From the IMG/VR virus record IMGVR_UViG_3300025132_006659: a stretch of DNA of 64,000 nucleotides, one strand, 5' to 3'. The DNA comes from an uncultured virus (IMG/VR IMGVR_UViG_3300025132_006659). Its lineage: Duplodnaviria; Heunggongvirae; Uroviricota; Caudoviricetes. Both the position numbers and the translations under genes were made by a program. The notes below the pieces were generated by a model. It was given only the letters and a program-made list of their open reading frames with translations. It was not told where the DNA came from and made no database searches. How positions within the stretch are numbered: the stretch's first letter is position 1; the number at the start of each line of letters is the position of its first letter. Below are positions 15,349-64,000 of this stretch, in pieces.

Positions 15349-15548
15349 AAAATCTCCTATTTTGTTGAGTTTGGATGCATATAGCATTTTCCAGTTTTAT
15401 CGTGTGGGCTCCACGAACACCAACGGTGTCAAAGTCATTTGGCCAGCATTACCTGTTTCCACTCACGCCACGTGGAGGCAGACTTATTGTGAGCAATGCC
15501 CCGATTTTAAGTGCGGGGCCAACACTTTCCCATTTACACTGATCCTTG

Positions 15549-44047: not shown

Positions 44048-44066
44048 TATAATACCTCCTTATGTC

Positions 44067-45158: not shown

Positions 45159-45191
45159 TAATTATAACTCCTAGTAATACTTTATCAAAGG

Positions 45192-45198
45192 TAAATAG
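45192..45198 (-). promoter_or_regulatory. CTATTTA element (candidate late promoter), scaffold and capsid genes
   Basis: About 33 nt upstream of the scaffold ATG. Confidence 0.65.
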
Positions 45199-45219
45199 TT
45201 CTGTTGTCAAGAAAAGGAA

Positions 45220-47037: not shown

Positions 47038-47079
47038 CTAATTTCCTCTGTTTTTGTAATAAATAGATCAAAATGTCTA

Positions 47080-48456
47080 TTATGTTACTATGTCTCTTAA
47101 TTTGGATGACGAATTATAGATCTCAGATATTTGATCAGCAGATAGTTCCTCAGCCCAGTGTGCGAAATCATCAATACCTTCTGCAAACACCTGTGTGTCT
47201 GCCCCATCATAAGCGCCCAACTCTTTTACTGAAGTAGTGACAACGGCGTTAGCTGTTCCAACAAGTGACCCATTGATGTAAAATTTTGAGTTAGTTCCGT
47301 TTGCAACGACTGCCATGTGAACCCAAGTGTTAGAGCCCTCATGTGTTGTCATATCATAGCCTGATCCATAAAACGTTCCGCCACTTGTCTCATTGAAAAC
47401 TCCTAATTCGTCTGAAGTGTTCCAAGTCACCAGTGGATAGTTTTCTGTATTCGCTGGTGAACCGCCCGACTCTTGTCTTAGAATTGCTCCGTAATCAGAA
47501 CCAGTTCTTTTTGAATAAAACCAAAATGCAAATGTATAAACACCACCAAGCAACGGGATTGCTGATTCAAATCTAGCTGGTGCTGTATTTCCGGATGAGC
47601 CGAAATCAATAAAGCCATTTTCGTATTTACCATTGTCTGTGCTAATAGTAGCATTTGTAAACGAGTTATTTCCTATCTGAGAAACAGCAGAAATACCTGA
47701 GAAATATAGTCTTGGGTAAGGGATTGTAACACCACTAGAGCCACCGCTATCAAATACAATAGTTACAAGGGCCTCCTTATCCGAACCAGCAGATTTGCCA
47801 ACCTTTATATGTATCAAATCTCCTTCCGACACAGATTGGTTTAGGCCAGAGAAGATCTTTTGATTGCAGTCAGTTGTTCCACCAGCCATGTTTGACACTT
47901 TTTCAGAAAAATCATCTGCGCCGACTGTTTGATTTACGATTGTTGATCCATAATCTGATTGATTTTTATATATACTTAGTGTTACGTTTCCATCGTTTGC
48001 TGTGCTAAAATTGTTCCCCTTAACAGAAACTATCACCTTGTCGATAGTGGTTGTTTTCGGCACGATAAACCAAGATTTTATACCTGATGCTGCCGAAATA
48101 GATGAAGCATTAATCCAATTGACAGGCTTATTGTTTGTGGTTAAATCAACATGGCCGGTCGCATACTCTAAACCTACACCAGATCCACCGCCTCCACCAG
48201 ACTGTGTCGCCCAACTTAGTTGCCCAGATCCATTTGTTTTTAGAACCTGATCTGCGCTTCCATCTGAGATTGGAAAAGTAAATGCTTCGTTGAATGTAAT
48301 AGAGCCATCTGATCCTGATATTTTCATTCTCAAAGATCCGCTGGTTTCGAAGCCTATATAATCTTCTCCAAAATCAATTTGTGTATTTCTTTCTGTGTCA
48401 TCTGCTGCTTTTAGGTCTCCGATGACTTGAGCCCCTTTTGAATATTTATAAGACAT
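47080..48456 (-). CDS. fibre protein with a C-terminal LamG/concanavalin-A-like domain
   Basis: FPISDGSADQVLKTNGSGQLSW fibre motif; YTFAFWFY...WVHMAVV...KFYINGSL...GIDDFAHW...LSADQISEIYN. Confidence 0.78.
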   Translation of the reverse strand: MSYKYSKGAQVIGDLKAADDTERNTQIDFGEDYIGFETSGSLRMKISGSDGSITFNEAFTFPISDGSADQVLKTNGSGQLSWATQSGGGGGSGVGLEYATGHVDLTTNNKPVNWINASSISAASGIKSWFIVPKTTTIDKVIVSVKGNNFSTANDGNVTLSIYKNQSDYGSTIVNQTVGADDFSEKVSNMAGGTTDCNQKIFSGLNQSVSEGDLIHIKVGKSAGSDKEALVTIVFDSGGSSGVTIPYPRLYFSGISAVSQIGNNSFTNATISTDNGKYENGFIDFGSSGNTAPARFESAIPLLGGVYTFAFWFYSKRTGSDYGAILRQESGGSPANTENYPLVTWNTSDELGVFNETSGGTFYGSGYDMTTHEGSNTWVHMAVVANGTNSKFYINGSLVGTANAVVTTSVKELGAYDGADTQVFAEGIDDFAHWAEELSADQISEIYNSSSKLRDIVT

Positions 48457-48487
48457 TTTTTATCTCCAGAATAATTAGCCCAAAAAT

Positions 48488-48518
48488 AAAAAAGGGCTGG
48501 TGCCCGAAGACACCAACC
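48488..48518 (-). terminator. intrinsic terminator with a cUUCGg loop
   Basis: GGTTGGTGTC-TTCG-GGCACCAGCC followed by CTTTTTT. Confidence 0.85.
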
Positions 48519-48543
48519 ACAATTTGAACAACCCAAGTTTGGA

Positions 48544-50760: not shown

Positions 50761-50835
50761 ATATTATCCTCCAAATAGACTTAAGGGGACTATGCCCCCT
50801 CACTCATAAATAGAATTCAAAAGTCATAATTGCCA

Positions 50836-51474
50836 TCAATATATGAAGAATTTATCCGTTCCGTTTGAATACAGGTTTACCGATGAATAGGGACTTTCTA
50901 AAACGATTGATGTTTCACCGTCTATTGTCTGAGAACCGCTTGTTTTTATTGTGATATTGTAAGTATTGGCATTTCCTGCCTCGTCTTTTATTAGGAAATA
51001 TTGACCGTCAACGTAAGCCCCTGCTGATGGCAATCTTATTTCTATCGCAACAGATGCAGAAACGCCTATTAGTGTGTCACCAGTAGAGGCTGTTGCTGTT
51101 GCTGTTATTCGTCTTCTGCTGTAGCTTATGCCTCCGACTGATGATGTAACTATAAGATTGCCACTAGAATCTAATCCCAAGTAGCTCCCCGAACCAGCTA
51201 AAGAGCCTGAAATTGGGTTTGTGATTCTAATACCAACTGATGAAGTAAGTCCCGGAACTGTCAGGGCATTAGAACTTACATCAAACGTAAAGCCGCTGTT
51301 AGCGTTGAGGCCTAGTTCTCCACTGATTGTTTTATAAAATGGTATCCTTGTAACAGAAGCGTTCTGTAGGGGAAACTGCTCAACATTTTCTAGCTGTGAT
51401 CCGTCGCCAACAAATGATCCGCTCATTGTCAGACTTACAGCCGATGTGCTCCCGCTTAAAACATTGTAACCCAT
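50836..51474 (-). CDS. short fibre-like virion protein
   Basis: C-terminal IRLPSA...IKDE.G...GSQTIDG...LESPY...KFFIY domain shared with neighbours. Confidence 0.7.
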   Translation of the reverse strand: MGYNVLSGSTSAVSLTMSGSFVGDGSQLENVEQFPLQNASVTRIPFYKTISGELGLNANSGFTFDVSSNALTVPGLTSSVGIRITNPISGSLAGSGSYLGLDSSGNLIVTSSVGGISYSRRRITATATASTGDTLIGVSASVAIEIRLPSAGAYVDGQYFLIKDEAGNANTYNITIKTSGSQTIDGETSIVLESPYSSVNLYSNGTDKFFIY

Positions 51475-51488
51475 AAATTAGCCTCCTG

Positions 51489-52094
51489 CTAATAGATGAA
51501 CCACTTGGAAACACCATCCGAGTATAAACTGAGAGCAGCATTATCTCCAGTGATACCATAATTATCCGCATGGTCTATTTTTTGACCAGAGGAGGCCGTA
51601 ATTCCGATCGCTTTTGGGTTTGTTCTGGTAAAAGACCATTCGTCTTTTATTATAAGAACTCTACCATAAGCGCTTGCTGCCGATGGCAACTTTATAGACA
51701 CAGCCGCACTGGCGCTAACTCCAATTATTGAGTCATAGGCACTAGCTGTGTATGAGGTCGTTGTTAGTCTTTTGTAATGATTCCTAAAAGCACCAGAAAC
51801 TATAGAAACGCTCCCTGTAAAAACATGTGTGTCGCCGCTATCGTTACCAAAATTACTGCTACCCGAAGATTGCAATTCTATTTTATTTGTGTGGATTACG
51901 TCAAACGTAAGTGCTTGAATGGTTCCGCTGATTATCATTGTTCCGGTCAAGAACAGCTTATTTGTGCTTTGATCAAATGTAAATTTAGAACTACCGGTTA
52001 ATTCACCGTTAGTTGCTTTCAAATACTGTATGCTTTTTGCCGGTCCTTCACCAGTTACTGCCCCAGATAAATATGCCCATCCAAAATCTGCCAT
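51489..52094 (-). CDS. short fibre-like virion protein
   Basis: SGSSNFGNDSGDTHVFTGS motif; C-terminal IKLPSA...IKDE...KID...LYSDG.SKWFIY domain. Confidence 0.7.
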   Translation of the reverse strand: MADFGWAYLSGAVTGEGPAKSIQYLKATNGELTGSSKFTFDQSTNKLFLTGTMIISGTIQALTFDVIHTNKIELQSSGSSNFGNDSGDTHVFTGSVSIVSGAFRNHYKRLTTTSYTASAYDSIIGVSASAAVSIKLPSAASAYGRVLIIKDEWSFTRTNPKAIGITASSGQKIDHADNYGITGDNAALSLYSDGVSKWFIY

Positions 52095-52106
52095 AGTTGT
52101 TTCCTA

Positions 52107-52568
52107 CTAAAATGTGCTACAAGCGGCAAAGAGATTAATCTCAGAAGCGTCAGCACAATGAAACGCTACCCTGTCAACTCCGACAATTTCATAAACTCGA
52201 TATGTGCGTTTGTCGGGTGTACAACTGGCAGGAGTAAGATTGGAATCCTCACCGACTATGCTTATTTCCTCTGTTCCGCTTTGAGCAGCATTTGTTCCTC
52301 CGACTCTTGTCATAAGAGGAAACCATCTTTGAAATGCGTGGCAATACCCAAAGACAGTTACAGTTTCGCTGTCGTCTTCATTAGTATCTTCAATCAACAC
52401 ATGCAAGTATCTTTGGTTTTCTGTTGCGTAACCCTGACTTCCAATTGCTGACGTGATTCCTCTTAAATCATCTAAACTCTCAACCGGTGTTACTGTTCCA
52501 CCTTGAGAGCCTGCTATATTTTTTGGGCTTCTTGTCCTGCCCCAACTTGTATACTTATGTACTGACAT
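52107..52568 (-). CDS. hypothetical, probably structural, protein
   Basis: GGAG SD; CTATTTA at 52590-52596; first gene of the fibre block. Confidence 0.7.
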   Translation of the reverse strand: MSVHKYTSWGRTRSPKNIAGSQGGTVTPVESLDDLRGITSAIGSQGYATENQRYLHVLIEDTNEDDSETVTVFGYCHAFQRWFPLMTRVGGTNAAQSGTEEISIVGEDSNLTPASCTPDKRTYRVYEIVGVDRVAFHCADASEINLFAACSTF

Positions 52569-52596
52569 AGTTATTTCTCCAATCTTTTATAAATAG

Positions 52597-52803
52597 TCAT
52601 TTGTTAGCTTTTGCTAATTCCTTTGCTCTTCTTCTATCGGATCTCTTGTTTCTCAATCTTCGCTTATCAGAAGGCTTAGTATACCTTTGACTTTCCTTGT
52701 ATTCGTTTATGATTCCAAGTTTCTTTACTTTCCTATTGAACCTTTTTATAACTCGCTCAATATTTTCGCCCCTTCTAGGCTTTACAACCAGATTTGTTGC
52801 CAT
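52597..52803 (-). CDS. rpsU: 30S ribosomal protein bS21
   Basis: VKPRRGENIERVIKRFNRKVKKLGIINEYKESQRYTKPSDKRR matches the bS21 pattern ExxxxxxxRFKRxxxxxGxxxExxxRxxYxKPSxxR. Confidence 0.9.
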   Translation of the reverse strand: MATNLVVKPRRGENIERVIKRFNRKVKKLGIINEYKESQRYTKPSDKRRLRNKRSDRRRAKELAKANK

Positions 52804-53210
52804 TATTCTTTCCCCATCATTTTTCTAGAAATTGCAAATGATTTTGCATTAAAAATTTCACTTATATCAACTCCGGGATCATTAGGGGCCACATCAGACA
52901 ATGGACCTCTACCGTTTCCAGTTTGAACAGGCGCTGGAGCCGGGGTTGTCCCTTCAAAAAGATCTATTCCGTTGTAAGCATCACGCCCAATAACATCAAG
53001 CAATTTTTTCTTTTTTTGTTTTAAGTGCTTATTGTTTGCCTTGGGTTTGGGCGCATTATAGTTGGATTCTGTTATTGTTTCTTTTCCAGATAAACCAACC
53101 GCAACTTCTTTTATAACATGCGACAAAGCGCCACTTTCTTCAAAAAGCACTTCCTTGATACACTCCTTTATAAGAGGTTTCAAGATTCTCTTTAGTTCAT
53201 TTTTATTCAT
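52803..53210 (-). CDS. hypothetical protein (head gene cluster)
   Basis: Translationally coupled to protease and bS21; leader MNKNELKRILKPLIKECIKE. Confidence 0.75.
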   Translation of the reverse strand: MNKNELKRILKPLIKECIKEVLFEESGALSHVIKEVAVGLSGKETITESNYNAPKPKANNKHLKQKKKKLLDVIGRDAYNGIDLFEGTTPAPAPVQTGNGRGPLSDVAPNDPGVDISEIFNAKSFAISRKMMGKE

Positions 53211-53836
53211 TAGTCTCTCAAAATTTTATCAAAAAGATCGTTAAGTATCAGATCTTTCTTTTCATTAAGTTTGTTTTCACGCATCCTAATGGTTCTGCCC
53301 GAAGCGCTCTGCTCTGGATATATGTAGGCGTCGGGCGTTGATGGTTCCGAAACAATGTCAAAGCAGATTAGTTCAAAGTCTTCTTGCACAACAGTGTTTC
53401 CCATGCTTTCTTTTACAGATCCAAGGCCTCTAGAAGAAATTCCTAATTTTACGCCGTTATTGATAAGATCTTTCAAGATCTTACCAGATGGTGTGTCTAG
53501 GACCTTTATCTTGCCCATTACATCATTTCCTTCCCACCAGATGTCTGTTACCATATGAGAAGCATTTCTAAGATTTATAACCGAGTCATCAGGGTGATCT
53601 AGTTCGCCTAAAGCCCTGTTGTCCTCTATAACTCTTTTGTAATTGTTAATCTCTCTATCAAGAACTTTACACGGGTAGACTCTTCCATTGCCATTCTTTT
53701 TTTCGCATGTCTGAAGTCTACCAGATAAATACAGAACGCCATTTGCCATTTCTCTCTTTTCCCTCTCGGTCAACAGGTCTTGGCAAATACCATCCTTGCA
53801 AAGTTCAAAAAATTCTGTTAATAATTTTTTAGCCAT
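53210..53836 (-). CDS. prohead core protease (T4 gp21-like)
   Basis: NGNGRVYP, ALGELDHP, ASH, GISSRGLGS, FDIVSEPSTPDAY. Confidence 0.95.
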   Translation of the reverse strand: MAKKLLTEFFELCKDGICQDLLTEREKREMANGVLYLSGRLQTCEKKNGNGRVYPCKVLDREINNYKRVIEDNRALGELDHPDDSVINLRNASHMVTDIWWEGNDVMGKIKVLDTPSGKILKDLINNGVKLGISSRGLGSVKESMGNTVVQEDFELICFDIVSEPSTPDAYIYPEQSASGRTIRMRENKLNEKKDLILNDLFDKILRD

Positions 53837-53870
53837 TTTCTTTCCTTATTGCGGGCGTTACCCGCTTGAG

Positions 53871-53924
53871 TCAGCTTCCTGAACAACAACGTCGAACGGG
53901 CTGTAACATCCATTTTTTAGTCAT
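53871..53924 (-). CDS. 17-aa peptide MTKKWMLQPVRRCCSGS
   Basis: GGAG SD at 53931-53934, ATG 53924, TGA 53871-53873; fills the intergenic gap. Confidence 0.55.
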   Translation of the reverse strand: MTKKWMLQPVRRCCSGS

Positions 53925-53925
53925 T

Positions 53926-54249
53926 TTATTCTCCTGATTGTGATCTTACTTGCTGCATGATCATTCCTTTTAACTCACTAGGTAATTCGGGCACTGTATC
54001 ATTGAGAGCCATTTCTAAAGCATTATCAAATGTCTGTGGAAAATCTGCATTTCTTGTATAGTTTTTCACTGAAGATTCAATTTGTGCTTTTTGGTCAACA
54101 GGGATAGCAGTAATCCCATTCAAAACGTTGTTCAAATGATGCATCATGAATGCATTCTTGCTTCTTTGGTCATCATCTCTATTGTAAGACATCATTTCCT
54201 TTAGTTCCCGCTTGATCATTTGCTTAAGTCTTTTGCTTGTTAATTTCAT
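53926..54249 (-). CDS. hypothetical protein with an MKLTSKRLKQMIKREL leader
   Basis: ORF track; shared leader. Confidence 0.7.
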   Translation of the reverse strand: MKLTSKRLKQMIKRELKEMMSYNRDDDQRSKNAFMMHHLNNVLNGITAIPVDQKAQIESSVKNYTRNADFPQTFDNALEMALNDTVPELPSELKGMIMQQVRSQSGE

Positions 54250-54252
54250 CTT

Positions 54253-54564
54253 TTATTCCTTTTTTGTTATTTTAAATCCGGAATCATCCACTACCATAGA
54301 TAGAAAATAAGAAGTCCCAGATGAGATCCAACCGCAAATAAAAAAATTTGCAATTGTGTAATCAAAAGTAAATAGTTCGGTTCCGGCGTTTATCAAAAAA
54401 AGAAAGCATCCTGTCCAAAATCCTACGCAAAGAGGGCAATGAAATAGTGTATTCCATTTTTTACTATAATCTTTTGCCGGCCTTAGGTCTTCAAAAATCT
54501 TGCCATAAACCAAAATAAAGGTCAAGCCATATGAGGCAAGAATAAAATATAGTAAATCCATCAA
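54253..54564 (-). CDS. membrane protein with a CPxCxGFW motif (DUF1360-like)
   Basis: Three hydrophobic segments; LFHCPLCVGFW. Confidence 0.7.
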   Translation of the reverse strand: MMDLLYFILASYGLTFILVYGKIFEDLRPAKDYSKKWNTLFHCPLCVGFWTGCFLFLINAGTELFTFDYTIANFFICGWISSGTSYFLSMVVDDSGFKITKKE

Positions 54565-55388
54565 ATCTCCAGTTTTGCTTTCATACGTTCGAAATCCCCA
54601 GAAAGAACTTCTTTTGTCACGTCATATAATCTATCATTTACAACAATTTCTATTTTAGTTGGTGAGATGTTTTTCCCATTATACTTGAATGCTGGTGCTT
54701 TCTCAATTAGCTGCTCTTCGAACTCTTGGTGAATTCCCTTAGCAGCAGAACCAAATAGTCCTTGTTCCATAAATTTGAAAACTCTAGACATAACGTTCCC
54801 AACCAATCTTTTTGTGCCACCAGATATTTTCTTGTCTAATGTAATATAAGGGCCTAATTGTCTTTTTACGTTGTATGGTGGTTTAACTACAATCCTATTA
54901 TTTTCTTTGTCATAATAATCAAAAATCTTTTGTCCATTAGGCAGCGTTAAGGACAAGAACCTATCCATATAGGTGATTACGAAATCAATCCAAATGTCGT
55001 AGCTAACCTCATAATCTATTTCCAAGTGCCTAAAGCTGTAGGGGACCTCTAGGGTTATAATCATACCTAGTCCATCTAAATCAGGATCCATCTTTCTATA
55101 TGAATGAATGCCTGTTTCTTCATCCCAATCAGAGACTGCCGCAGTGCTCTTGAGTCTTCTTAGTGCTCTATTCTTGTCACTAAATAAGTAAAAGCCACCA
55201 CCCTGAGCAGAGGCCATATCTACGCTCCTATTGGTTGTAATCTCTTTCCATCCAAGCACATTAGATAGATTTACCCCTGTGTTTGTTGCGTGATAGCCAA
55301 TTATTTTGTTACCCCTTCTATCTTCGTCTAAAAAGAATTCTATTTCTTCTTTTATTATTTGCTTTATTTGAAAGGCAGATAATATCAT
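54561..55388 (-). CDS. putative H-Y-type ADP-ribosyltransferase-fold protein with shared leader
   Basis: GYHAT strand and GGGFYLFSDKNRA motif; leader QIKQIIKEEI. Confidence 0.5.
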   Translation of the reverse strand: MILSAFQIKQIIKEEIEFFLDEDRRGNKIIGYHATNTGVNLSNVLGWKEITTNRSVDMASAQGGGFYLFSDKNRALRRLKSTAAVSDWDEETGIHSYRKMDPDLDGLGMIITLEVPYSFRHLEIDYEVSYDIWIDFVITYMDRFLSLTLPNGQKIFDYYDKENNRIVVKPPYNVKRQLGPYITLDKKISGGTKRLVGNVMSRVFKFMEQGLFGSAAKGIHQEFEEQLIEKAPAFKYNGKNISPTKIEIVVNDRLYDVTKEVLSGDFERMKAKLEI

Positions 55389-56074
55389 TAGTACGTATAT
55401 CTCCCGTAAAGATATGGAGCAAACAAGCCATGCTGCCTTATTGATCCTTTTTCTTCTTCATGTGGCACTTCGCCTAACTCAGTCGACTGGTCTTCTTCTG
55501 GATCTGAATAATAGTCATTGATAAGATCATCATAATCGTTATCGGTTTCAAAATGTGGTTTTTCGTTCTTCATCCATTCACTAATTTGATATAAAACTAA
55601 ATCAAGAACTTCCGGCTCTTTTTTATCTTTGGCTTCCAACATAAGGGCTTCTAGAGACCCATAGACGCTACCGCCTTTTATTGAGTCATAAGCCACAATC
55701 CCTTTTTTACGTAGATGGTTGAAAAGTCGATTTTCGGCACCATAAACCGCCTCCGACATCATGTCTTTAGCAAATGCAACAATTTTCTTTTTTTCCTTTA
55801 TTATCATGATATCAATGTCTTTATGGTCAAAAATCATAAAGTCGCCATTCAAAGCGCTTCTAACATTTAGTTGAAATTCAAATACTCTTTTCTTATCGTT
55901 AATGATGTTAACAGACATGTCAGGCGGCTTGATATTGACGCTAACCTTCTCTTCCTGACTCGGAAGGCCCGTTATTTGAACTGGAACTTGTTGCGCCTGT
56001 TGCACTCTAACATCAACATCATCGTATAAATCAACATTGAGCATGTCTTTGGGTGTTATTTTCAAATTAGGCAT
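55388..56074 (-). CDS. hypothetical protein (head gene cluster)
   Basis: ORF track; coupled to neighbours; acidic C-terminus. Confidence 0.75.
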   Translation of the reverse strand: MPNLKITPKDMLNVDLYDDVDVRVQQAQQVPVQITGLPSQEEKVSVNIKPPDMSVNIINDKKRVFEFQLNVRSALNGDFMIFDHKDIDIMIIKEKKKIVAFAKDMMSEAVYGAENRLFNHLRKKGIVAYDSIKGGSVYGSLEALMLEAKDKKEPEVLDLVLYQISEWMKNEKPHFETDNDYDDLINDYYSDPEEDQSTELGEVPHEEEKGSIRQHGLFAPYLYGRYTY

Positions 56075-56894
56075 TTCTATTGATCTCCGCTACTAAATCT
56101 TGTATATAAAAAACATCTTTTACCATTTGCTCACAGATAGGCTTCTTTGAAAAGTCTTTCAACTTAGTAGAAACACGCTCTATTTTGGACAAAAACATAC
56201 CATTTTTATCGTTTTTTTGAGTTTCGGTAATGTTATCTACCTCTTTTATAAGTCGTGAAATTTCCTCATTCATGAACGATTTTAGGCCTAATCCATTATC
56301 AGAAAAAGAAACAATATAATTAGTCAGTAAGTCCTTTTGCTCTTTTCTTAATGTCTTTTCATATCTCTTGTTAAAAGAATCCACAAAAGTTTTATAAGTC
56401 AGGTTATCAATATGCCTCATTTCCTTTTCGGCACTAGGCTTTTTAGTCAATTTTGTCAGCAGCCTAGATTCGACAATTAGTCTGTTTTTTGCCTTCAAAT
56501 TGGAATCAAAAAAAGCACCAACAGACGCTATGTCTTTGTAGTTTGATATAAAGTTAGCAAAAGCATTGTTTGATAACGTCTCGTTAATGGCTCTAATCAG
56601 CTTTGTCTGGAGGTTGAAGATAGCTTTTCTATCTAAAGCGTCGTAGTCTTTTTTCGCTTCAAAGATAAATCTTTTGGCGAACTCTGTAGACATCTTGTTG
56701 GATTCTAGAACCGATTTGTATATTTCCAAATCCTCTCTCAAGAGTGATCCTCTACAGTAAAACTCTTTTATAATCTTTATAATTGCTTTCTTTTTGTCTT
56801 TATCATTTCTAACAATTGATTTTGTAAGTTCTTTTACAAGACATTCGTAAAGAAAAGCGGTATTTCTTTTCTTATTGTGCTTCATTTTCATCAT
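56067..56894 (-). CDS. hypothetical protein downstream of the portal gene
   Basis: KHNKKRNTAFLYE N-terminus; start at ATG 56894 behind GAGG. Confidence 0.75.
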   Translation of the reverse strand: MMKMKHNKKRNTAFLYECLVKELTKSIVRNDKDKKKAIIKIIKEFYCRGSLLREDLEIYKSVLESNKMSTEFAKRFIFEAKKDYDALDRKAIFNLQTKLIRAINETLSNNAFANFISNYKDIASVGAFFDSNLKAKNRLIVESRLLTKLTKKPSAEKEMRHIDNLTYKTFVDSFNKRYEKTLRKEQKDLLTNYIVSFSDNGLGLKSFMNEEISRLIKEVDNITETQKNDKNGMFLSKIERVSTKLKDFSKKPICEQMVKDVFYIQDLVAEINRNA

Positions 56895-58815
56895 TATTCC
56901 TCTTTGATAGTAAGCCTTCAACTAAGTAAGCTGTTTCATCTTTAGTACTAAATAGTTTATTTTCTTCTACTTTATGAGATTCTATAATACCTTTCCCTAA
57001 ACGACTCAGTTCTGGATATCCTTTCCAGATTGATCGCCCAGTTTGTCCATATTCTCCAGTAGCCATATTTTTCATCTGCTTTCTTCTGCCGCCTTTGTCA
57101 TAAGAAGACTTGTGCCTTTTATATTTGCCTCTCTTGAACTTGGCCGCATCTGCACGAACCCAAATGTCCTCATCTCTTTTGCCGGGCGCTGCCAATAGAA
57201 CATCATCGTCACCACCAGCGTCTCCTCCTTCATCTTCTCCGGCATCACCGCCTTCATCACCTCCGAGGTCCAAATCACCACCAAGGTCCCCACCGAGATC
57301 GCCGCCAAGGTCTCCGCCTAGATCACCACCACCGAGATCGTCACCGCCTCCTTGTTCACCAGATGCTGCTTTTTCAAGATCTGCTAAGAATTTTTTGTCG
57401 AAGTACATCTCTCTTTGCATTCTGAGGAACTCTTCTTCGGATACACCCAACATGTTTTCTGCTACCCACCTTCTAGAGAAATAGTTTTCAGTGGCCGCAC
57501 CCGCTGCGTCGAATTTAGTCTTCCAGTGCTCCAGTTCTTGTAATTCTGCTATTTTTGAAGGGTTGTTCAAACCTAACTTGAATGACAGCAAGTCATCTCC
57601 ACGATAGCCCAATGTAAAAAGATGTATAATTCCTATTTTTTCCAATTCAGACACAACAGATCTTTGTAGTCTTTGAATTGTTCTCGCAAACCTGATGTCC
57701 TTTTGGGCCAATGTTGTCTTGTCTTCTTGTGCGCCCTCACCCATAACAAGGTATGATTGTGGGATTTTTAACGCTGCGAACAACTTTTCACGCAGATACT
57801 TAACATCTTCTATTTGGCCGGTAAATTCCCCACCTTTCATAGATTCGATTTTTGTGTTGGAAGCACCACCACGGATTGGAATAAAATAATCCTCCTCAAT
57901 AGAAAGCGGATTGTATCGTAAGTCAACCCGACCAGTTTTCGGATCAACAACTTGGTGTCTCTTCATTTGAGTCATGACTTTTTGCATATATTGCTCAACA
58001 TCTTGCGGGGGAATAGACCCAACATCAATATAAAATGCTCGTCTTTCTGGAGAACGAACAATTCTGTAGGCCATCATGGCGTCTTCTAACAAAATTAGCT
58101 GCCTCCATATGCGTCTGGCTGGCTCTAAGACTGAGGTCCCGTATGGATAGTGCTTGTCGTTTCCTAAAACCCTAAAATGTGCAACCTGCCAGTTTTCTAA
58201 TGTCAAACCAGCAGAATTCCACTGGAATTGTACATAATTTGGATTTGATTCATCTTCGCCTTCTAATCTTTCCACTTCTTGGGACGGAATCCCAATGCAC
58301 GAACGAACTCCTATGTTATCGTCAAGGTCTAAATACAAAAATAGATCGCCATACTTACACATGGTGCGAGCCCATCCAAAAAGATTGTGCTCTATGTTCA
58401 AAACATTGTAATATAATGAATTTAAAATTGCCTTTATTTCATCATTCGGACACTTGATCTTCAACATTGGTTGTATTGAGGAGTGTGTAGTGATTTCGTC
58501 CGCATAAATATCAATACTAGATGCAATTATTGGTTCATATTCCATTTCATCAAAATCTACATAACGCTCTGTTCTATTTCTAGCCGAGATCATGTTGACA
58601 GTGATCGCATTCATTGCATTGTATTCTGTCTTTTTGAATTGTTTACCGCTAGCAGATCTAAACTTAGATGAAAACATGTCTAAATGTCTGCGTCTGAGTT
58701 TTCTGCCTGTTTGAGTTCTTCTATTTATTATTGGACCCGAAAATAATTTTGTGAGCGCTTTGAAAAGCCCTGATGTTTCATTATACGGATTCTTGTTATT
58801 TTTATTATAAGCCAT
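56872..58815 (-). CDS. portal protein (T4 gp20-like)
   Basis: LEDAMMAYRIVRSPERRAFYIDVG, EEDYFIP, IEDVKYL...KIP; directly after terminase. Confidence 0.95.
   Translation of the reverse strand: MAYNKNNKNPYNETSGLFKALTKLFSGPIINRRTQTGRKLRRRHLDMFSSKFRSASGKQFKKTEYNAMNAITVNMISARNRTERYVDFDEMEYEPIIASSIDIYADEITTHSSIQPMLKIKCPNDEIKAILNSLYYNVLNIEHNLFGWARTMCKYGDLFLYLDLDDNIGVRSCIGIPSQEVERLEGEDESNPNYVQFQWNSAGLTLENWQVAHFRVLGNDKHYPYGTSVLEPARRIWRQLILLEDAMMAYRIVRSPERRAFYIDVGSIPPQDVEQYMQKVMTQMKRHQVVDPKTGRVDLRYNPLSIEEDYFIPIRGGASNTKIESMKGGEFTGQIEDVKYLREKLFAALKIPQSYLVMGEGAQEDKTTLAQKDIRFARTIQRLQRSVVSELEKIGIIHLFTLGYRGDDLLSFKLGLNNPSKIAELQELEHWKTKFDAAGAATENYFSRRWVAENMLGVSEEEFLRMQREMYFDKKFLADLEKAASGEQGGGDDLGGGDLGGDLGGDLGGDLGGDLDLGGDEGGDAGEDEGGDAGGDDDVLLAAPGKRDEDIWVRADAAKFKRGKYKRHKSSYDKGGRRKQMKNMATGEYGQTGRSIWKGYPELSRLGKGIIESHKVEENKLFSTKDETAYLVEGLLSKRNNDENEAQ
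57205..57352 (-). repeat. imperfect 12-bp tandem repeat encoding (GGDL)n and GGD/E in the portal C-terminal tail
   Basis: GGGDDLGGGDLGGDLGGDLGGDLGGDLDLGGDEGGDAGEDEGGDAGGDDD; codons vary between units. Confidence 0.8.
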
Positions 58816-58819
58816 TTTT

Positions 58820-60403
58820 TTATCCTTTGTAAATCCATGAGAATTTAGTCATATCTTCTTTGAATTTTTGTTGTTTTTCTTCAATTTTTTCGTTGTAGCC
58901 CTTCATTCCTTTAATTGTTGTGTTCATAACGCTGTCACTTTTATACATAGAATTCAATAGCGCTTTTTTATATTCTACTTCTCTCTTGTTGACCTGTAGA
59001 GCGGTATCTCTGACCCAGCAGCCGATGGCAAGTGCCATAACCAAATCGTCGTTATATGAACGCATTGCTTGTGGTTTGCCGTTTTGCCAAATAAATGTCT
59101 TCAATTCGTGATAAATTCTAGATGAATAAGTTGTTAAGAGTCGATTCCTAAAAAATTCTTCCAATTTAGCCACAACCAGTGGCCTTGTCTTGGTAGAAGT
59201 AGTAAACCCTGCTACGGCCTTGTCCATCACTTCCCCCTGATAAGACTCAACGAACTCATGCGTTGACTTTATTGAATAGTAAAGATTAGGATATCCCAAA
59301 TCACATAGCTTTTCTAAAACAGAGATCCCAATTCCGTTGTTCTCGACAACTAATAAGCAATTTCCGTATTCAACACCGGCATCAAACAGGATCCTAGAAT
59401 ATAAATCTAAAGATGGTTTGCCCTGATATTCTGCTACGATCTCCATGGTGTTTAGTTTTATGACATGGAATACAGAATTATCTGCACCATCGCCTCTGGC
59501 TACGTCTGCTGTTAGTAAGTATTGGTTATTGCCGTCAAATTTCTCCCAAATCCAAAAATTTCTATCATATCCAGTTCTATAGATCGGATCTTTGATGTTT
59601 CCTTGAATCCAAGCCAAATCATCCGGATGAACAACTGTATCTCCGGAGGTGTTAAAATTACAGAGCAATTCTTGGGCCACTTGTCTCTTAGACATGTTTT
59701 TAGTTTCCTTTTCAAACCAAGCCTGATCTCGCTCCGGGTGCACATCCCACATTAGCTCTATGGGATTGAATTCGTTTTCTCCGTCAACTGCCCCAATATA
59801 CGTCTTGTGAAACCAGTTTCCCGTTCCTTTTGGAGTAGAAAGTGCAATGCACCGACCACCAGTTGCTAGCGTGGAGTAAACCGCAGTCCAAATTTCATTC
59901 ATTTTTTCTATATGAGCAGCCTCATCAACAACAAGCAAAGATAACGCCTCTGAACGACCAGCGTCTTCAGAAGTGGGCACTGCTTTTATGATTGAGCCAT
60001 TAGATAATTCAAAAGACGTTCTATTGTCAACGTCAATTGTTGCTATTTTCATCCACTCAGGTAAATTCTTCATCATACTTTTTACTTTTTTTACTAAGTT
60101 CGCCGCTGTGCTGAACTTGGTCGCAAGAACAACAATGTTCTTTTCTTTGTGGAAAAGCATAAACCAAACGCAATAAGCAGCAGTAATGGTTGATATCCCT
60201 AACTGCCTAGCTTTTAGAATAACGTTGAATCTAAAATCATTATAATCATTTAGTAAATCATCTTGATATGGGTAAGTCTTGAACTGAATCAAACCTTTCA
60301 TGGGGTGACTTATTCGACAATAATTATTAATAAAATGTGGAGCATCTTTTCCACATTTTAGTATTTCTTTAACAATCTGTTTCTTTGTTAACCTGAAGGC
60401 CAT
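58820..60403 (-). CDS. terminase large subunit (T4 gp17-like)
   Basis: LKARQLGIST, GRSE, VVDEAAH, STPKG, ADVARGDGADNS, VENN and DDLVMA. Confidence 0.96.
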   Translation of the reverse strand: MAFRLTKKQIVKEILKCGKDAPHFINNYCRISHPMKGLIQFKTYPYQDDLLNDYNDFRFNVILKARQLGISTITAAYCVWFMLFHKEKNIVVLATKFSTAANLVKKVKSMMKNLPEWMKIATIDVDNRTSFELSNGSIIKAVPTSEDAGRSEALSLLVVDEAAHIEKMNEIWTAVYSTLATGGRCIALSTPKGTGNWFHKTYIGAVDGENEFNPIELMWDVHPERDQAWFEKETKNMSKRQVAQELLCNFNTSGDTVVHPDDLAWIQGNIKDPIYRTGYDRNFWIWEKFDGNNQYLLTADVARGDGADNSVFHVIKLNTMEIVAEYQGKPSLDLYSRILFDAGVEYGNCLLVVENNGIGISVLEKLCDLGYPNLYYSIKSTHEFVESYQGEVMDKAVAGFTTSTKTRPLVVAKLEEFFRNRLLTTYSSRIYHELKTFIWQNGKPQAMRSYNDDLVMALAIGCWVRDTALQVNKREVEYKKALLNSMYKSDSVMNTTIKGMKGYNEKIEEKQQKFKEDMTKFSWIYKG

Positions 60404-60409
60404 TATACA

Positions 60410-60961
60410 TTAGCCCTTTTTCCTTGTATCGTTCTGGGGTCTCTTGTTATTGTTACTTAACTCTAAAAACTTTCTAATAGAATCATCAACAGATCTATTT
60501 TCTGATCCTTTCCAGCCTTCGTCTTCTTTTAGGCCGGATATGTTATAGTGACGATATGCTTGTACAAATGACCTTACTCGTGAAACAGAAGTTGCTAAAA
60601 TCTGAATATCGTCTACTTTTGATAATGTAATTGATTTGCCGGTGATTACCTTATACTCTTTTTGCAAGAACTTTTTGATCTCATCGAGTCTTCTTTCCAT
60701 CTCTGTTTCAAAGCCGCCACCATGAATCTCTTTCAATTGAATGTCTGATTGGTATTTTATACAGATTTTATTTCCGTAAAATTTTACATTAAATCCATCC
60801 ATAACCCTAGAATCCATTATAGGGCAACCTTCCTCTCTCTGGAGTCCGACTTTCTTAGCCTCGCCATCACGAACAAAGCGCTCATCATGCGAACCATCAT
60901 AAGCATTTGCTGCCGCTTGGGCCAAGCCTCTTACAATCTCTAAAATATTAGAATCTGCCAT
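60410..60961 (-). CDS. hypothetical protein
   Basis: ORF track; coupled to neighbours. Confidence 0.75.
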   Translation of the reverse strand: MADSNILEIVRGLAQAAANAYDGSHDERFVRDGEAKKVGLQREEGCPIMDSRVMDGFNVKFYGNKICIKYQSDIQLKEIHGGGFETEMERRLDEIKKFLQKEYKVITGKSITLSKVDDIQILATSVSRVRSFVQAYRHYNISGLKEDEGWKGSENRSVDDSIRKFLELSNNNKRPQNDTRKKG

Positions 60962-61266
60962 TATTTTTTCCTCTTTTTTCTTTTGAATCCTTCCATCATA
61001 CCGGCATGCATTGGCATTCCGCCCATGTCACCTGAAGGAGGAATGGAGCCTCCTGTTGGCGGCAAGTCGCTACCACCATCAGACATAGCTTTCAATTCCT
61101 CAATAAAACCATCTAAAACCATAATTGGATCTGGGATTCTGCCTGAAAGCAATAATCGTCTCAATTCATCCATGGCCTTTTCAACAGCCCAATCATTATC
61201 GATTTCCTCAAGTCTTTGCATTTCTTCTTGAATAATTTTTCTAAGTCTCGTTTTTGTAATCTTCAT
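60961..61266 (-). CDS. hypothetical protein with an MKITKTRLRKIIQEE leader
   Basis: Start moved to ATG 61266 (GGAG SD). Confidence 0.7.
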   Translation of the reverse strand: MKITKTRLRKIIQEEMQRLEEIDNDWAVEKAMDELRRLLLSGRIPDPIMVLDGFIEELKAMSDGGSDLPPTGGSIPPSGDMGGMPMHAGMMEGFKRKKRKK

Positions 61267-61627
61267 TTGGTCTCCATCCGTTTTTCCATCTTTCTTCACG
61301 GCCTTCAACCCACTGAATGTAGCACCTTTGACAGCAACCAAACTTTGACATGTAAACATCATCGCTTGATTTGAATGAATATGTGTTACAAATCGGACAA
61401 GAACGATCAGATTCTTTTGTAATTAGTTTCCTTGATATTAAAACACCGTCAATTTCAACATCATCATCTGGATTGCTTTCTGGCTTGTAAAGCCTTTTCA
61501 TTTCCGATAAGTATTTTTTTTCTTTTTTATCGCACCAATTCTTTTTAGGGTGCTGTACGGTTTCATCGCCATACTTTTTTGCTATTGCTTTTTCTATTTT
61601 AATTGCATAATTTGGATCTTTGCTCAA
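61241..61627 (-). CDS. zinc-finger-containing hypothetical protein
   Basis: CPIC...CCQRC; probable TTG start at 61627 behind GGAGG. Confidence 0.7.
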   Translation of the reverse strand: MSKDPNYAIKIEKAIAKKYGDETVQHPKKNWCDKKEKKYLSEMKRLYKPESNPDDDVEIDGVLISRKLITKESDRSCPICNTYSFKSSDDVYMSKFGCCQRCYIQWVEGREERWKNGWRPNEDYKNET

Positions 61628-61637
61628 GGTGCCTCCA

Positions 61638-61883
61638 TTAGTCTTCAATAAAAATCTTACTTAGAATAGCTGCCTTGACTAATCCCTGAACGTTTTCATT
61701 TCCACCAGAAATGTTTTTTGCTGCGTCGTCTACAATCTTGACCACAGCAGCATTTGTTTTCAAATCATCTCTAAGTTTTTTCGCAATTGGTCCAACTTTA
61801 TTTTCCAATTCGTCTGATAGGACGTTATCTAGCTCCATCTCTTCTTTTATTAAGTTCAATAATTTTTGTTTTGTTATTTTCAT
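61638..61883 (-). CDS. hypothetical protein with an MKITKQKLLNLIKEE leader
   Basis: Start moved to ATG 61883 (AGGA SD). Confidence 0.7.
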   Translation of the reverse strand: MKITKQKLLNLIKEEMELDNVLSDELENKVGPIAKKLRDDLKTNAAVVKIVDDAAKNISGGNENVQGLVKAAILSKIFIED

Positions 61884-61891
61884 AATAATTC

Positions 61892-62302
61892 CTATTTTAT
61901 AACATTCATTATGCCAATCGCAGTTGCCACACCAGTGATAAATCCACCAGCCAACCACCACGAGTTTTTACTTGGCTTAATCTGTTCACGAAGAAATTTG
62001 TTTTCTTCTTCCCTAATGCTAATTAGTTCGCTCAAACGCATATCATCTGCTTCACAAGTCGCCGTGAGGATATCAAACTTGTATTTTTCATGTGCCTTCA
62101 TCAAATCAACCTCGTAATTCACACGCAACTGGCATTCTTTGCCTTCGAATTTCTTATCAACAATGATAATTGCAAGAGCCTCGTCGTTGAATAGTCGCCC
62201 TGCGAAGGGCGCAGCTTCTCCTTTCTTAATACTTGTAAACTTTGGCACATCCGCATGAGCAACAGGGCATGCCATTAGCAAAAACATAAAAAAACTAGTC
62301 AT
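61892..62302 (-). CDS. exported coiled-coil protein with a C-terminal membrane anchor (spanin-like architecture)
   Basis: Hydrophobic N-terminus with LMAC and AHA; coiled coil; C-terminal WWLAGGFITGVATAIGIM. Confidence 0.6.
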   Translation of the reverse strand: MTSFFMFLLMACPVAHADVPKFTSIKKGEAAPFAGRLFNDEALAIIIVDKKFEGKECQLRVNYEVDLMKAHEKYKFDILTATCEADDMRLSELISIREEENKFLREQIKPSKNSWWLAGGFITGVATAIGIMNVIK

Positions 62303-62323
62303 TTGATCTCCGTGTAAAAATAT

Positions 62324-62352
62324 AGTATAACACGCTTTTAGGGGTTTGTCAA
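62324..62352 (-). promoter_or_regulatory. sigma70-type promoter
   Basis: TTGACA (62347-62352), 17 nt, TATACT (62324-62329). Confidence 0.85.
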
Positions 62353-62380
62353 GTTTTTTCTTGTAATTATATTCTATTTC

Positions 62381-62986
62381 TCACATACTATCCGATTTGA
62401 ATATATCATGAAGAACTTCCTTGTTGTACAATTTGAACATATCATAGATAACTTCCGTGACAATTTGATCTATAGATTCACGATGTTTCCCGAACCACTC
62501 CTCACCGTCAGGGAAGCCATGCCATTTAAGCTGATTGTCCTGACTTTTTTGATGTTCTGGTTCTCCTTTCCATCTATTAGCCAAACGTTCCCTGAAGCCG
62601 GGATAATGTGTGTCAAGTACATGGTTCATTACCTTTGGCTTTAGTGCGTGTATATTCCAATTCTTAAAGGGCATTCGCTCACGATCCCATCCAGATGATA
62701 AATAATCTATTGCTGTGTTTCGAATTGTTTCTTTTGGTATCCGCATCCCAGTAGTCCCAAGAATCTGTTCGGGTTTCTCAGGGCCCATATGATCTTTGTC
62801 CACGCCACCTAACTCAGATCCCATTATTGGATCTGTCTGGTATAATTCATCCGCCGCTCTTCTCTGTCGGGGATTGAGTGTTTTTCTGATGTCAGTCACC
62901 CCGGGTGGAACATACATTGCTTCTTTTACAAGCGAGCCTAATTCTTCTTTAATGATTTGTTTTAACTGTTTTGTTGTCAATTTCAC
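62381..62986 (-). CDS. hypothetical protein with an MKLTTKQLKQIIKEEL leader
   Basis: GTG start overlapping the upstream stop codon; shared leader. Confidence 0.7.
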   Translation of the reverse strand: MKLTTKQLKQIIKEELGSLVKEAMYVPPGVTDIRKTLNPRQRRAADELYQTDPIMGSELGGVDKDHMGPEKPEQILGTTGMRIPKETIRNTAIDYLSSGWDRERMPFKNWNIHALKPKVMNHVLDTHYPGFRERLANRWKGEPEHQKSQDNQLKWHGFPDGEEWFGKHRESIDQIVTEVIYDMFKLYNKEVLHDIFKSDSM

Positions 62987-63213
62987 TACTCTATGTCCTT
63001 TCCCGATTGTTTGATCTCGGCATCAAAAGTGTCTCTTAGTCTAATGAGAGGGTTGAAATTTGCTCGTTTTCTTTCTAAGATGAGGTTACCTTGCGGCCTT
63101 ACCAGTTCGCCTTCTAATTCTAATCCTTCAAAGTCTATGACCGTTTCTTTTTGATATTTGACCTTTGGTTCTTCGGTCTCTTGTGCTAATGTTAATAATA
63201 ATAAAAATTTCAT
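62986..63213 (-). CDS. cglF: adventurous gliding motility protein CglF/GltF-like
   Basis: YQKETVIDFEGLELEGELVRPQG...ERKRANFNPLIRLRDTFDAEIKQS matches my recollection of the myxobacterial CglF/GltF pattern KTxIDFxxxxxEGELxKPxG...FxSLIxxRxxFxxExxxS; short hydrophobic N-terminus. Confidence 0.75.
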   Translation of the reverse strand: MKFLLLLTLAQETEEPKVKYQKETVIDFEGLELEGELVRPQGNLILERKRANFNPLIRLRDTFDAEIKQSGKDIE

Positions 63214-63998
63214 TTTATATCCTCTAACGTTATGACTATGACATGCTGATCATATCTTGGAGGGTTTGGAGAATTCAAGAGGTCCTGTAAGCTATTGCCT
63301 TCTTGCCTCTTGTTCTCCTTTCCTCTTGGGTGCGATTCTACTTTACTTATTCTAAATTTACCAGACACTATAATCTCTACTTCATCGTCTTCGAACTGCG
63401 AGAACTCATCGACGTCAGCACCCCTTGTCAATTTAGGTATATATAATATAACACCCCATTGACCTTTTTGCAAATTAGCAAAATGCTCGCCTTCCATAAA
63501 ATTATCGTAAGCAATATTCTTGTCAGTACTAAAAGAGCTAAGATTACCCACACTAATTACGTTCCCTTTCTTATACAAATCTAAACCGGCATACCTACTT
63601 TTACTAGATGTCGTCTCTTTCATACTAAGGCCTCTCCACACCTCGACAGGTTTTATTTTGGATTGAACTAGTTTCTGTAATATTACTTTAGCCTTTTCGT
63701 ATGTTTCTTTGGAAGGCTGAAACATGTCGATGATGCCATCATTAACAAACTTGAGAGCTTTGGCTTTCTTTGGATCAAAAGCATCAGGATCCCTGATCGC
63801 TGGGTAATGTCCTCCGGTAAAAATACTAATTGCTCTAAATAGCTCCCTTTCAATTGGACTATAAGCATCAAGCATGATTTGTCTAAGATCTGCGACAGAT
63901 TTGTCATAATTTTTTTCTATATCGGCCTCTTTTTCTTTTGATGTCTTGAAGGAGGTCCTAAGAATTGCGTTGGTTATTTTTTTGATTGAGTCGAAAAA
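63210..63998 (-). CDS. R-S-E class ADP-ribosyltransferase (Alt/Mod/VIP2-like); 5' end lies beyond the window
   Basis: VEVWRG, LSSFSTD and EVE motifs in order; frame stays open from 63875 to the window edge. Confidence 0.75.
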   Translation of the reverse strand, partial: FFDSIKKITNAILRTSFKTSKEKEADIEKNYDKSVADLRQIMLDAYSPIERELFRAISIFTGGHYPAIRDPDAFDPKKAKALKFVNDGIIDMFQPSKETYEKAKVILQKLVQSKIKPVEVWRGLSMKETTSSKSRYAGLDLYKKGNVISVGNLSSFSTDKNIAYDNFMEGEHFANLQKGQWGVILYIPKLTRGADVDEFSQFEDDEVEIIVSGKFRISKVESHPRGKENKRQEGNSLQDLLNSPNPPRYDQHVIVITLEDIK

Positions 63999-64000
63999 AT

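Follow-up and report, generated by a model that had tools for sequence, protein, structure and literature searches.

Why should a tailed phage encode part of a bacterial gliding motor? The question is raised by a small open reading frame (ORF) in a 64,000-nucleotide stretch of DNA from an uncultured virus of the Caudoviricetes (IMG/VR record IMGVR_UViG_3300025132_006659), the whole of which is referred to here as the window. The product of this ORF resembles GltF of Myxococcus xanthus, a protein also named CglF (PMC4488436). In the available portions of the papers cited here, gltF (MXAN_4868) is among the genes found only in Myxococcales and Bdellovibrionales and encodes a protein of 89 residues with a signal peptide (Luciano et al. 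2011, PMC3169522); GltF is required for adventurous gliding, a functional GltF-mCherry fusion is found at focal adhesion clusters, and GltD clusters depend on gltF (PMC3169522). Both CglE and CglF carry type I signal sequences, from which alone their transfer by outer-membrane exchange was inferred (PMC3325183). The window gene belongs by homology to the wider family of GltF, resides in phage genomes and is conserved there, and its product may take the place of a host adaptor in the Glt machinery.

The assignment to this family begins with the NCBIfam profile NF033764 (gliding_CglF), which matches the ORF with an E value of 3.5e-15 and 55.8 bits, residues 11-73 of the protein aligning with positions 25-87 of the 88 in the profile. 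The core aligns near full length with cellular relatives, at 42-63% identity and with a shared core length and shared invariant residues, and by sequence comparison the ORF is a homologue at the level of the wider CglF/GltF family. The initial annotation of the window had proposed the match to CglF/GltF; the profile match and the presence of the cellular relatives inside glt clusters bear it out, with the proviso that the profile match, significant as it is, falls short of equivalog rank. A word-indexed search found 204 database proteins that match the ORF, with lengths of 51-92 aa among the 120 matches listed, and an exhaustive profile search returned 1,383 representatives at E <= 0.001, mostly of 70-100 aa, of which 402 reached E <= 1e-10. 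With 204 matching database proteins and a core held by purifying selection, the ORF cannot be taken for a chance frame. No match to the ORF was found in Pfam or PHROGs, a tblastn search of 50,697 named phage records gave no CglF-like match at E <= 0.01, and a sequence search of the PDB with the family profile found no solved relative (best E 0.68).

The gene overlaps both of its neighbours. Reading on the minus strand, it opens with an ATG at 63213 and closes with a TAG at 62986; since the ORF call begins at the first start codon past a stop, a longer in-frame start is impossible. The ATG overlaps the stop codon of the upstream ORF (ATGA, 63210..63213), the sequence AGAGGA lies 6 nt 5' of it, and the TAG shares one base with the GTG start of a 201-aa downstream ORF at 62986. 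The initial annotation had described a 75-aa frame coupled at both ends to phage genes, and its coordinates, the strings it quoted from the translation and the overlaps with both neighbours all agree with what is found here. It had also raised the prospect of a chimeric bacterial insert. That the ORF is an assembly chimera, or a recent and non-functional host fragment, has in its favour the cellular ancestry of the gene and nothing further, and is contradicted by flanks that are 100% identical (window 58000..64000) in three viral contigs whose names carry different dataset numbers, by an ORF GC content equal to that of the phage, by relatives encoded on 93 viral contigs, by purifying selection and by translational coupling to both neighbours. 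We therefore reject this explanation, the probability of which is next to nothing.

The nearest cellular genes lie in gliding-motility clusters. Among the best 80 of 140 stretches drawn from a species-genome collection, identity to the phage protein ranges from 42 to 63%. Neighbours were taken from greedy longest-ORF calls grouped within 6 kb by blastp single linkage, a rough procedure that admits opposite-strand shadow ORFs in high-GC loci. By this count GltG-family genes are found in 52/80 loci, genes for tetratricopeptide repeat (TPR) proteins of GltE-like type in 53/80, CglE in 32/80 and GltC in 29/80, and the cellular gene order is GltC, two TPR (GltE-like) genes, the CglF-like gene, GltG and CglE. 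Representative neighbours match their NCBIfam families with E values of 2.7e-98 (GltG), 1.2e-30 (CglE) and 2.1e-70 (GltC), and the TPR protein of locus L006 also matches TIGR02795 (Tol-Pal YbgF, E 1e-39). None of the GltG, GltC, CglE or GltE-like neighbours occurs in any of 83 viral loci, so the phage gene does not occupy the position between gltE and gltG; rough as the ORF calls are, they separate the cellular from the viral neighbourhoods cleanly. The cellular relatives come from metagenome-assembled genomes (MAGs) labelled mostly Myxococcota, 'Deltaproteobacteria' or 'Proteobacteria', and in the phylum of one glt-bearing MAG a match was found in 92 of the 151 genomes sampled. The median GC content of the glt-bearing loci is 0.66, two of them standing at 0.47-0.48 (L048, L065).

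Several other features of these cellular genes deserve mention. Two CglF-like ORFs, usually in tandem, are present in 17/80 cellular glt loci (L007, L010, L014, L019, L036, L043, L045, L050, L052, L054, L058, L059, L069, L073, L076, L079 and L083), the second copy being divergent and sitting on a long tree branch. Some MAGs bear the labels Enterobacterales, Enterobacteriaceae or Klebsiella pneumoniae, which look wrong given a locus GC of 0.61-0.70 and the presence of glt clusters (L005, L012, L018, L029, L031, L034, L044, L054 and L057 among them). Beyond the glt clusters, the CglF-like segment forms part of larger proteins of 636-1345 aa. When nine such long proteins were compared with NCBIfam, NF033764 matched eight; a VWA-type N-terminal part like that of 'marine sortase target' proteins, below cutoff, was present in four (P0226, P0239, P0250 and P0267), and in two an AgmX/PglI TonB-like tail (NF033768) follows the CglF-like segment (P0226, 636 aa, segment 466-526 and tail 548-633; P0267, 763 aa, segment 605-656 and tail 680-761). 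P0161, P0166, P0181 and P0245, of 971-1345 aa, had no other NCBIfam match.

On the viral side, relatives are found on 93 contigs of the viral collection, from which 80 distinct contigs were taken, counted as 83 loci since three entered twice. Their neighbours are phage genes, including those for an SbcC-like nuclease, DNA polymerase, endolysin, GroEL, a nudix hydrolase, terminase and portal, and they fall into at least six syntenic contexts. The head protein of the window recurs at 66-68% identity in four of five large viral records (G158 to G161), the fifth record being only 40% complete, and G158, which belongs to the same phage group as the window, is 185,386 bp long and rated 100% complete. 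Where the initial annotation had seen a single gene, the CglF-like gene is thus a conserved trait of one capsid-related clade of 185-290 kb phages. Its GC content has come to match that of its carriers, with a viral median of 0.37 (n=84), 0.368 in the window copy and a cellular median of 0.62 (n=80). Over the 56-codon core of 57 unique viral sequences, the median dN/dS is 0.150 and the maximum 0.536 (228 pairs with dS<2), synonymous sites being near saturation.

A tree of viral and cellular homologues, which the initial annotation had proposed, was built from 160 unique domain sequences over 88 columns (quick LG+G4) and is too short to resolve a donor: viral and cellular labels require five changes on it, of which well-supported branches force two. 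Because many forks are open and several long branches were flagged, no donor lineage or number of captures is claimed. We read the pattern as an old capture, after which the gene was inherited mainly vertically. Co-capture of a second glt-linked gene was considered for the 'choice-of-anchor D' proteins found in 13 cellular and 24 viral loci and was rejected, the best cross-match (E 3e-12 over 33-46% of the query) being that of a generic domain. None of the five large viral records, three of them at least 96% complete, has a gene for TonB_C, NF033768 or a GltC-like protein, the GltC search having been run there without a positive control.

What the phage has retained is a very small protein with a recognizable plan. 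In 61 of 63 unique viral copies the N-terminus has a short hydrophobic run, followed by an AxA-like site and then by acidic residues up to a closing P-K/R, and longer homologues have typical signal peptides; judged by eye, the protein shares with CglF/GltF both small size and a predicted type I signal sequence. The core that follows is 56 residues long in 55/63 viral and 75/87 cellular unique sequences. Y20, T24, I26, D27 and F28 are invariant, or nearly so, in viral and cellular copies, and among the strongly conserved core columns none is switched between virus and cell, four being relaxed in viruses (33, 36, 56 and 67). AlphaFold2 (AF2), with 80 sequences, gave a mean predicted local distance difference test score (pLDDT) of 70.4 and a predicted template modelling score (pTM) of 0.22, the chain being modelled as a signal helix, coil, and a helix at residues 64-74 with pLDDT of about 86-90. 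As modelled, then, the phage protein shares with GltF a disordered chain that ends in a C-terminal helix.

How such a chain might work is suggested by a 2025 AlphaFold-based model, in the available portion of which GltF is largely disordered and bridges GltC, GltD and GltG (PMC11761067). In that model a strand of GltF (94-111) pairs with the TonB-like domain of GltG and a helix (133-147) lies in a crevice of GltC; the bridge comes from structure prediction alone, and its authors state that they have no biochemical evidence for it (PMC11761067). In the register of NF033764 these segments would correspond to phage residues of about 21-38 and 60-74, a mapping that takes the 147-residue numbering to be the 89-residue protein plus an N-terminal extension.

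The phage protein itself was placed in an ESMFold2 three-chain model, with residues 11-75 as partner of GltC 27-624 and GltG 540-665 from MAG locus L006, each supplied with an alignment. The complex scored 0.73, as compared to 0.14 for the best of three controls; of 157 solved complexes 116 attain this mark, and of 215 mismatched pairs 2, counts that are rough here because custom alignments and a three-chain design were used for the model. Runs agreed in at least 37% of contacts, with a partner pLDDT of at least 46. In the model, phage residues 19-33 contact GltG 567-577 and 648-661, and residues 45-75 contact GltC, the lowest errors being those of residues 63-71 against GltC 287-344. The modelled contacts are those of both published GltF segments, the strand on GltG and the helix on GltC. 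Replacing GltC brought the score to 0.14, and therefore most of the confidence comes from the contact between the helix and GltC.

Taken with these models, the sequence evidence suggests that the phage protein probably docks on Glt-type host partners in the periplasm. The natural joining of the CglF-like segment to a TonB-like tail in P0226 and P0267 points the same way. Because the phage encodes neither partner, it must act there on proteins of the infected cell. At a probability of roughly 0.4, we favour the reading that the ORF encodes a secreted, largely disordered GltF/CglF homologue that replaces a labile host adaptor at the Glt trans-envelope junction. The protein would be exported and its signal peptide removed, leaving about 65 residues with the complete conserved core. 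Its strand would lie paired against the sheet of a TonB-like C-terminal domain such as that of GltG, and its C-terminal helix, joined to the strand by the conserved linker, would sit in a TPR groove such as that of GltC. The phage adaptor would thereby stand in for that of the host between the outer-membrane platform and the inner-membrane proton-driven motor, and replacement of a labile host part may keep the trans-envelope linkage working once host gene expression stops, in the manner of other host-like genes carried by large lytic phages. We prefer replacement to blocking since purifying selection has kept the linker as well as both contact elements.

Several points weigh against replacement of the host adaptor. 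Nothing in the data separates replacement from interference. The case for export is a by-eye reading of a signal peptide that is very short, among the shortest of the viral copies. The NF033764 score is below the 90-bit equivalog cutoff of the profile; since cellular copies embedded in glt clusters (G133 and G002) score 58.3 and 45.1 bits, that cutoff marks close Myxococcus-type orthologues and not the wider family. The window copy has V25 (codon 63139-63141) where 97% of cellular and 98% of viral cores have E, and position 25 falls within the strand predicted to contact the TonB-like domain. As for the complex, the GltG contact alone is unsupported by the GltC-replacement control (score 0.14), the GltC and GltG stand-ins come from a MAG that may not be the host, and the fold of the phage partner is uncertain, with a pLDDT below 50 in one run. 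TonB-box complexes are among the structures already solved, and the modelled strand pairing may partly echo a likeness to them. In three phage groups, moreover, the CglF-like gene lies near genes of spanin-, holin- or endolysin-like type, and this may point to a different role.

The identity of the host bears on the same question. The initial annotation had proposed a gliding or predatory deltaproteobacterial lineage; the closest cellular copies do come mostly from Myxococcota and Deltaproteobacteria MAGs, but no host link was found, and the phage GC of 0.38 stands against the median of the glt-bearing loci. When positions 44001..64000 of the window were compared with 401 genomes of the phylum of G002, no spacer-like or prophage-like DNA match was found, a further point against the favoured reading. 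Short matches of 74-91% DNA identity to window positions 44619-44697 and 57207-57346 in 19 of these 401 genomes are probably compositional or repeat-like coding sequence, not spacers. T4-like cyanophages (cyanomyoviruses) can have a GC content far below that of their hosts, and because large T4-like phages can differ in this way the GC gap is weak evidence.

The company that the gene keeps is best seen in the phage group of the window, which numbers 11 distinct viral contigs in addition to the window. In the simplest layout (L091) fam31, fam28, the CglF-like gene and fam22 follow in that order, the last three overlapping by 1-4 nt. The product of fam31 has about 85 aa and two hydrophobic helices; that of fam28, which lies beyond the end of the window (L086:6470-6874), has 134 aa, an N-terminal membrane helix and a charged coiled coil, with weak Rz-like spanin matches in PHROGs for all four members tested (E 4.4e-5 to 4.3e-3). 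The fam22 product, 132 aa in L091, is predicted with a mean pLDDT of 44.8, and its look-alikes in the Atlas are viral clusters of hypothetical proteins only. No conserved lipobox o-spanin was seen in the phage neighbourhoods, and the two families may form an unusual spanin-type or other envelope system. Of the five large viral records, fam22 is present in four and fam28 in two. In G159 (C1:107672-108414) fam28 and fam22 adjoin with no CglF-like gene between them, some 105 kb separating them from the CglF-like gene, which is far from fam22 in G160 and G161 as well; fam28 and fam22 are thus the conserved pair, and the CglF-like gene is a separate, movable module. An o-spanin identity for the CglF-like protein was rejected, there being no conserved cysteine or lipobox in the viral N-termini. 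Lysis-type genes are also met in two further groups: one has an endolysin/amidase gene two positions upstream of the CglF-like gene, and the largest has a weak holin-like ORF (phrog_689, E 0.0017) two positions downstream of it.

These neighbours leave room for a role in lysis, in which the protein would work with phage envelope proteins, for instance by linking a spanin-like inner-membrane protein to the outer membrane or by tuning the timing of lysis. The overlapping cassette of L091, the spanin-like matches of fam28, the nearby endolysin/amidase and holin-like genes, and the apparent lack of a conserved lipobox o-spanin, whose place a linker could take, are all consistent with it. We nonetheless consider it distinctly improbable, because the CglF-like gene adjoins spanin-like fam28 only in the group of the window and lies elsewhere in G159, G160 and G161, two unrelated ORFs separate it from these partners in the window itself, the spanin and holin matches are weak and could reflect coiled-coil composition, and conservation of the core with cellular GltF points to cellular partners. 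Those partners need not be Glt proteins. The host may not be a Glt glider at all, the core being instead a peptide that docks generally on AgmX/PglI-type TonB-like domains and on TPR proteins, aimed at, for example, a Tol/Ton-like or VWA-linked system. Occurrence of the segment inside the long proteins outside glt clusters, some with a VWA-type part or a TonB-like tail, would fit such a target, as would the GC gap to the glt-bearing MAGs, the lack of a host link and the resemblance of Glt TPR proteins to Tol-Pal YbgF. Against it, glt-cluster copies are 50-63% identical to the phage protein and have exactly its pattern of invariant residues, which points to shared partner surfaces, and the GC gap counts for little given the low-GC T4-like phages, so that another target also seems rather improbable.

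Interference with gliding, finally, would draw on the same docking evidence as replacement. An excess of a two-sided adaptor could saturate GltC and GltG separately, uncoupling platform from motor, and so stop gliding or hide or immobilize a receptor, resulting in superinfection exclusion, a periplasmic version of what the initial annotation had suggested. Phage proteins that disable type IV pili and thereby exclude other phages are known, and the phage copy is minimal, consisting of a signal peptide and the core. Yet a single interface would be enough for a blocker, and here both contacts and the linker show the conservation seen in cells, no position having been switched; nor is minimal size specific to the phage, many cellular copies of 81-91 aa being just as short. 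The initial annotation had further suggested that the protein plugs a Glt outer-membrane barrel, but the published model, in its available portion, and our complex model place the contacts on periplasmic GltC and the TonB-like domain of GltG, and neither touches an outer-membrane barrel (PMC11761067). On this evidence interference is unlikely, and replacement of the host adaptor remains the reading that we prefer.

Comparison with known systems helps to delimit what the phage protein would be. With M. xanthus GltF it has in common an NF033764 match over nearly the whole conserved part, small size, a signal peptide and both modelled contacts; it differs in being phage-encoded, in having no glt neighbours and a score below the equivalog cutoff, in lacking a long N-terminal extension and in its AT-rich codons, and any role of it in gliding is putative. 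The copies in MAG glt clusters (for example L006, L010 and L065) have the same 56-residue core and invariant residues as the phage protein and similar NF033764 scores and length; their place is between gltG and the GltE-like TPR genes, many of them forming tandem pairs, at a GC of 0.43-0.68. The TonB-box and TolA-binding segments of colicins and of the g3p of filamentous phages would be similar in action: short and otherwise disordered, they contribute a strand to the C-terminal domain of a TonB/TolA-type protein. Those segments act from outside at entry, whereas the CglF-like protein would, by analogy, be made inside the cell and exported, and would have a second, helical contact for a TPR protein. 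Large lytic cyanophages carry psbA, a host-like 'auxiliary' gene, and the CglF-like gene may be compared to it as an anciently captured, ameliorated copy, held by purifying selection, of one small part of a host machine; what would set it apart from psbA-type genes is that its product is a structural adaptor in an envelope motor and neither a metabolic enzyme nor part of a photosystem core. Phage T4 has small periplasmic proteins of its own, the antiholin RI and Sp. The CglF-like protein is likewise a small, apparently exported protein of a T4-type phage, with its gene near lysis-type genes in some carriers, but no homology to RI or Sp was found (no match in PHROGs), and its conserved residues are those of cellular GltF.

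The DNA of the window is, as the initial annotation had supposed, that of a phage, and it is a T4-distant myovirus; structural and replication genes identified by PHROGs are found across it. Besides the genes in Table 1 these include genes for two tube proteins, baseplate parts, a DnaB-like helicase, a UvsX-like recombinase, a single-stranded DNA-binding protein, ribonucleotide reductase, thymidylate synthase and a DNA methyltransferase. All large ORFs of the window are on the minus strand, its GC is 0.35-0.42, and no tRNAs were found in it. The head protein is a distant relative of gp23, its best named matches being those to an uncultured 484-kb phage (39.5%), Microcystis phage Mel-JY01, Flavobacterium phage immuto and Rhodothermus phage RM378. 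Because a 78,617-bp identical contig runs about 66 kb past the end of the window, and the window extends 63 kb the opposite way, the genome is at least about 130 kb long.

Table 1. Coordinates of the CglF-like gene, its predicted parts and other features of the window
Feature	Position	Strand	Basis and remarks
CglF/GltF-like gene	62986..63213	(-)	75 aa, coordinates include the stop codon; NF033764 match, 204 homologues, dN/dS 0.15
Putative Sec-type signal peptide	63184..63213	(-)	Residues 1-10, MKFLLLLTLA; cleavage predicted after TLA (before QE), then acidic linker ETEEPK; by eye
Predicted strand against TonB-like C-terminal domain	63115..63159	(-)	Residues 19-33, KYQKETVIDFEGLEL; complex model
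C-terminal amphipathic helix, predicted binder of GltC (TPR) crevice	62989..63033	(-)	Residues 61-75; AF2 and complex model
Upstream ORF	63210..64000, runs off window	(-)	N-terminal MKLIMENWR motif; function unassigned
Downstream ORF	62381..62986	(-)	201 aa, GTG start, N-terminal MKLTTKQLKQIIKEE motif; function unassigned
Sigma-70-like promoter match	62324..62352	(-)	Gap before fam22; TTGACA, 17 nt, TATACT, with TG; 11/12; consensus match only
fam22	61892..62302	(-)	136 aa, signal peptide, C-terminal transmembrane helix, two conserved cysteines, Gly-rich helix; conserved partner of fam28
Terminase large subunit	58820..60403	(-)	PHROGs
Portal	56872..58815	(-)	PHROGs
Prohead protease	53210..53836	(-)	PHROGs
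Major head protein	42290..44047	(-)	PHROGs
Tail sheath	31834..34707	(-)	PHROGs

The two ORFs that flank the CglF-like gene (63210..>64000 and 62381..62986) are confined to the closest relatives of the window and are inserted either side of the gene in the window and its identical contigs. The upstream ORF has 377 aa in the identical contig (L086:6871-8004); the full-length protein has no match in Pfam or PHROGs, and its window fragment has a sole match, phrog_832, at chance level (E 0.046). The 201-aa downstream ORF has no family match in Pfam, NCBIfam or PHROGs. A promoter scan gave 18 sites as compared to 10.8 expected in shuffles, and promoter and terminator scans were uninformative on the CglF-like ORF itself.

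A number of further observations concern the wider genome. Window positions 14116-15387 (-) encode a GmrSD_N-like domain protein (E 4.3e-9), 2830-3846 (-) an amidohydrolase-family protein (E 6.7e-9) and 8023-8358 (-) a GroES-like co-chaperonin (E 7.2e-7), and GroEL is encoded in another CglF-bearing phage group (L145:8191-9813, E 4.5e-142). An N-terminal motif, MK(L/I)T(T/K)xxLxxII(K/Q)EE, is common to otherwise unrelated small ORFs at 62381-62986, 61638-61883 and 60961-61266 of the window, all (-), and recurs at L086:5777-6145 and L091:5837-6214. Because the motif begins at an internal Met in two of the window ORFs, it suggests that their true starts may be 61883 and 61266. Internal proteins of phage T4 carry a capsid-targeting sequence, and by analogy the motif could be a common leader of that kind. 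A second N-terminal motif, MKL(L/I)(M/L)ENWR, is shared by an 824-aa ORF at window 36084-38558 (-) and the ORF upstream of the CglF-like gene, and is also found on a HAD-like ORF 3' of the CglF-like gene in another phage group (L101:8198-8803).

A search of the literature, without bioRxiv supplements and subscription papers, turned up no account in print of a Glt part encoded by a phage, in keeping with the initial annotation, which knew of no phage with a gliding-motor part. Neither Glt nor CglF is mentioned in the available portion of a preprint on myxophage CRISPR (10.64898/2026.09.14.751636), the supplements of which were not covered, and large low-GC myoviruses do not figure there either. 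Of the parts of the Agl-Glt system GltF is understood least, and a phage lineage that keeps only the 56-residue core, long conserved, marks that core as the functional unit, the phage copy being a natural minimal variant of GltF. In its widest form, the idea would be that the 'coupling pin' of a proton-driven TonB-like motor has been carried for a long time by a whole clade of 185-290 kb aquatic myoviruses, which use it to gain control over how that motor is linked to the outer membrane, and, at its boldest, that fam28 and fam22, having no outer-membrane lipoprotein, reach the outer membrane by way of host GltC and the GltF-like adaptor, wiring a gliding part into lysis or envelope remodelling; we offer this as a long shot. 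Should the phage prove to aim at something other than Glt, the core would serve for docking on AgmX/PglI-type TonB-like domains in general, and that too would be new. If replacement of the host adaptor is true, a trans-envelope motility and force-transduction machine would join the host systems touched by host-derived phage genes, and the presence of the CglF-like gene offers a hint as to which hosts this abundant, uncultured clade of large aquatic myoviruses infects.

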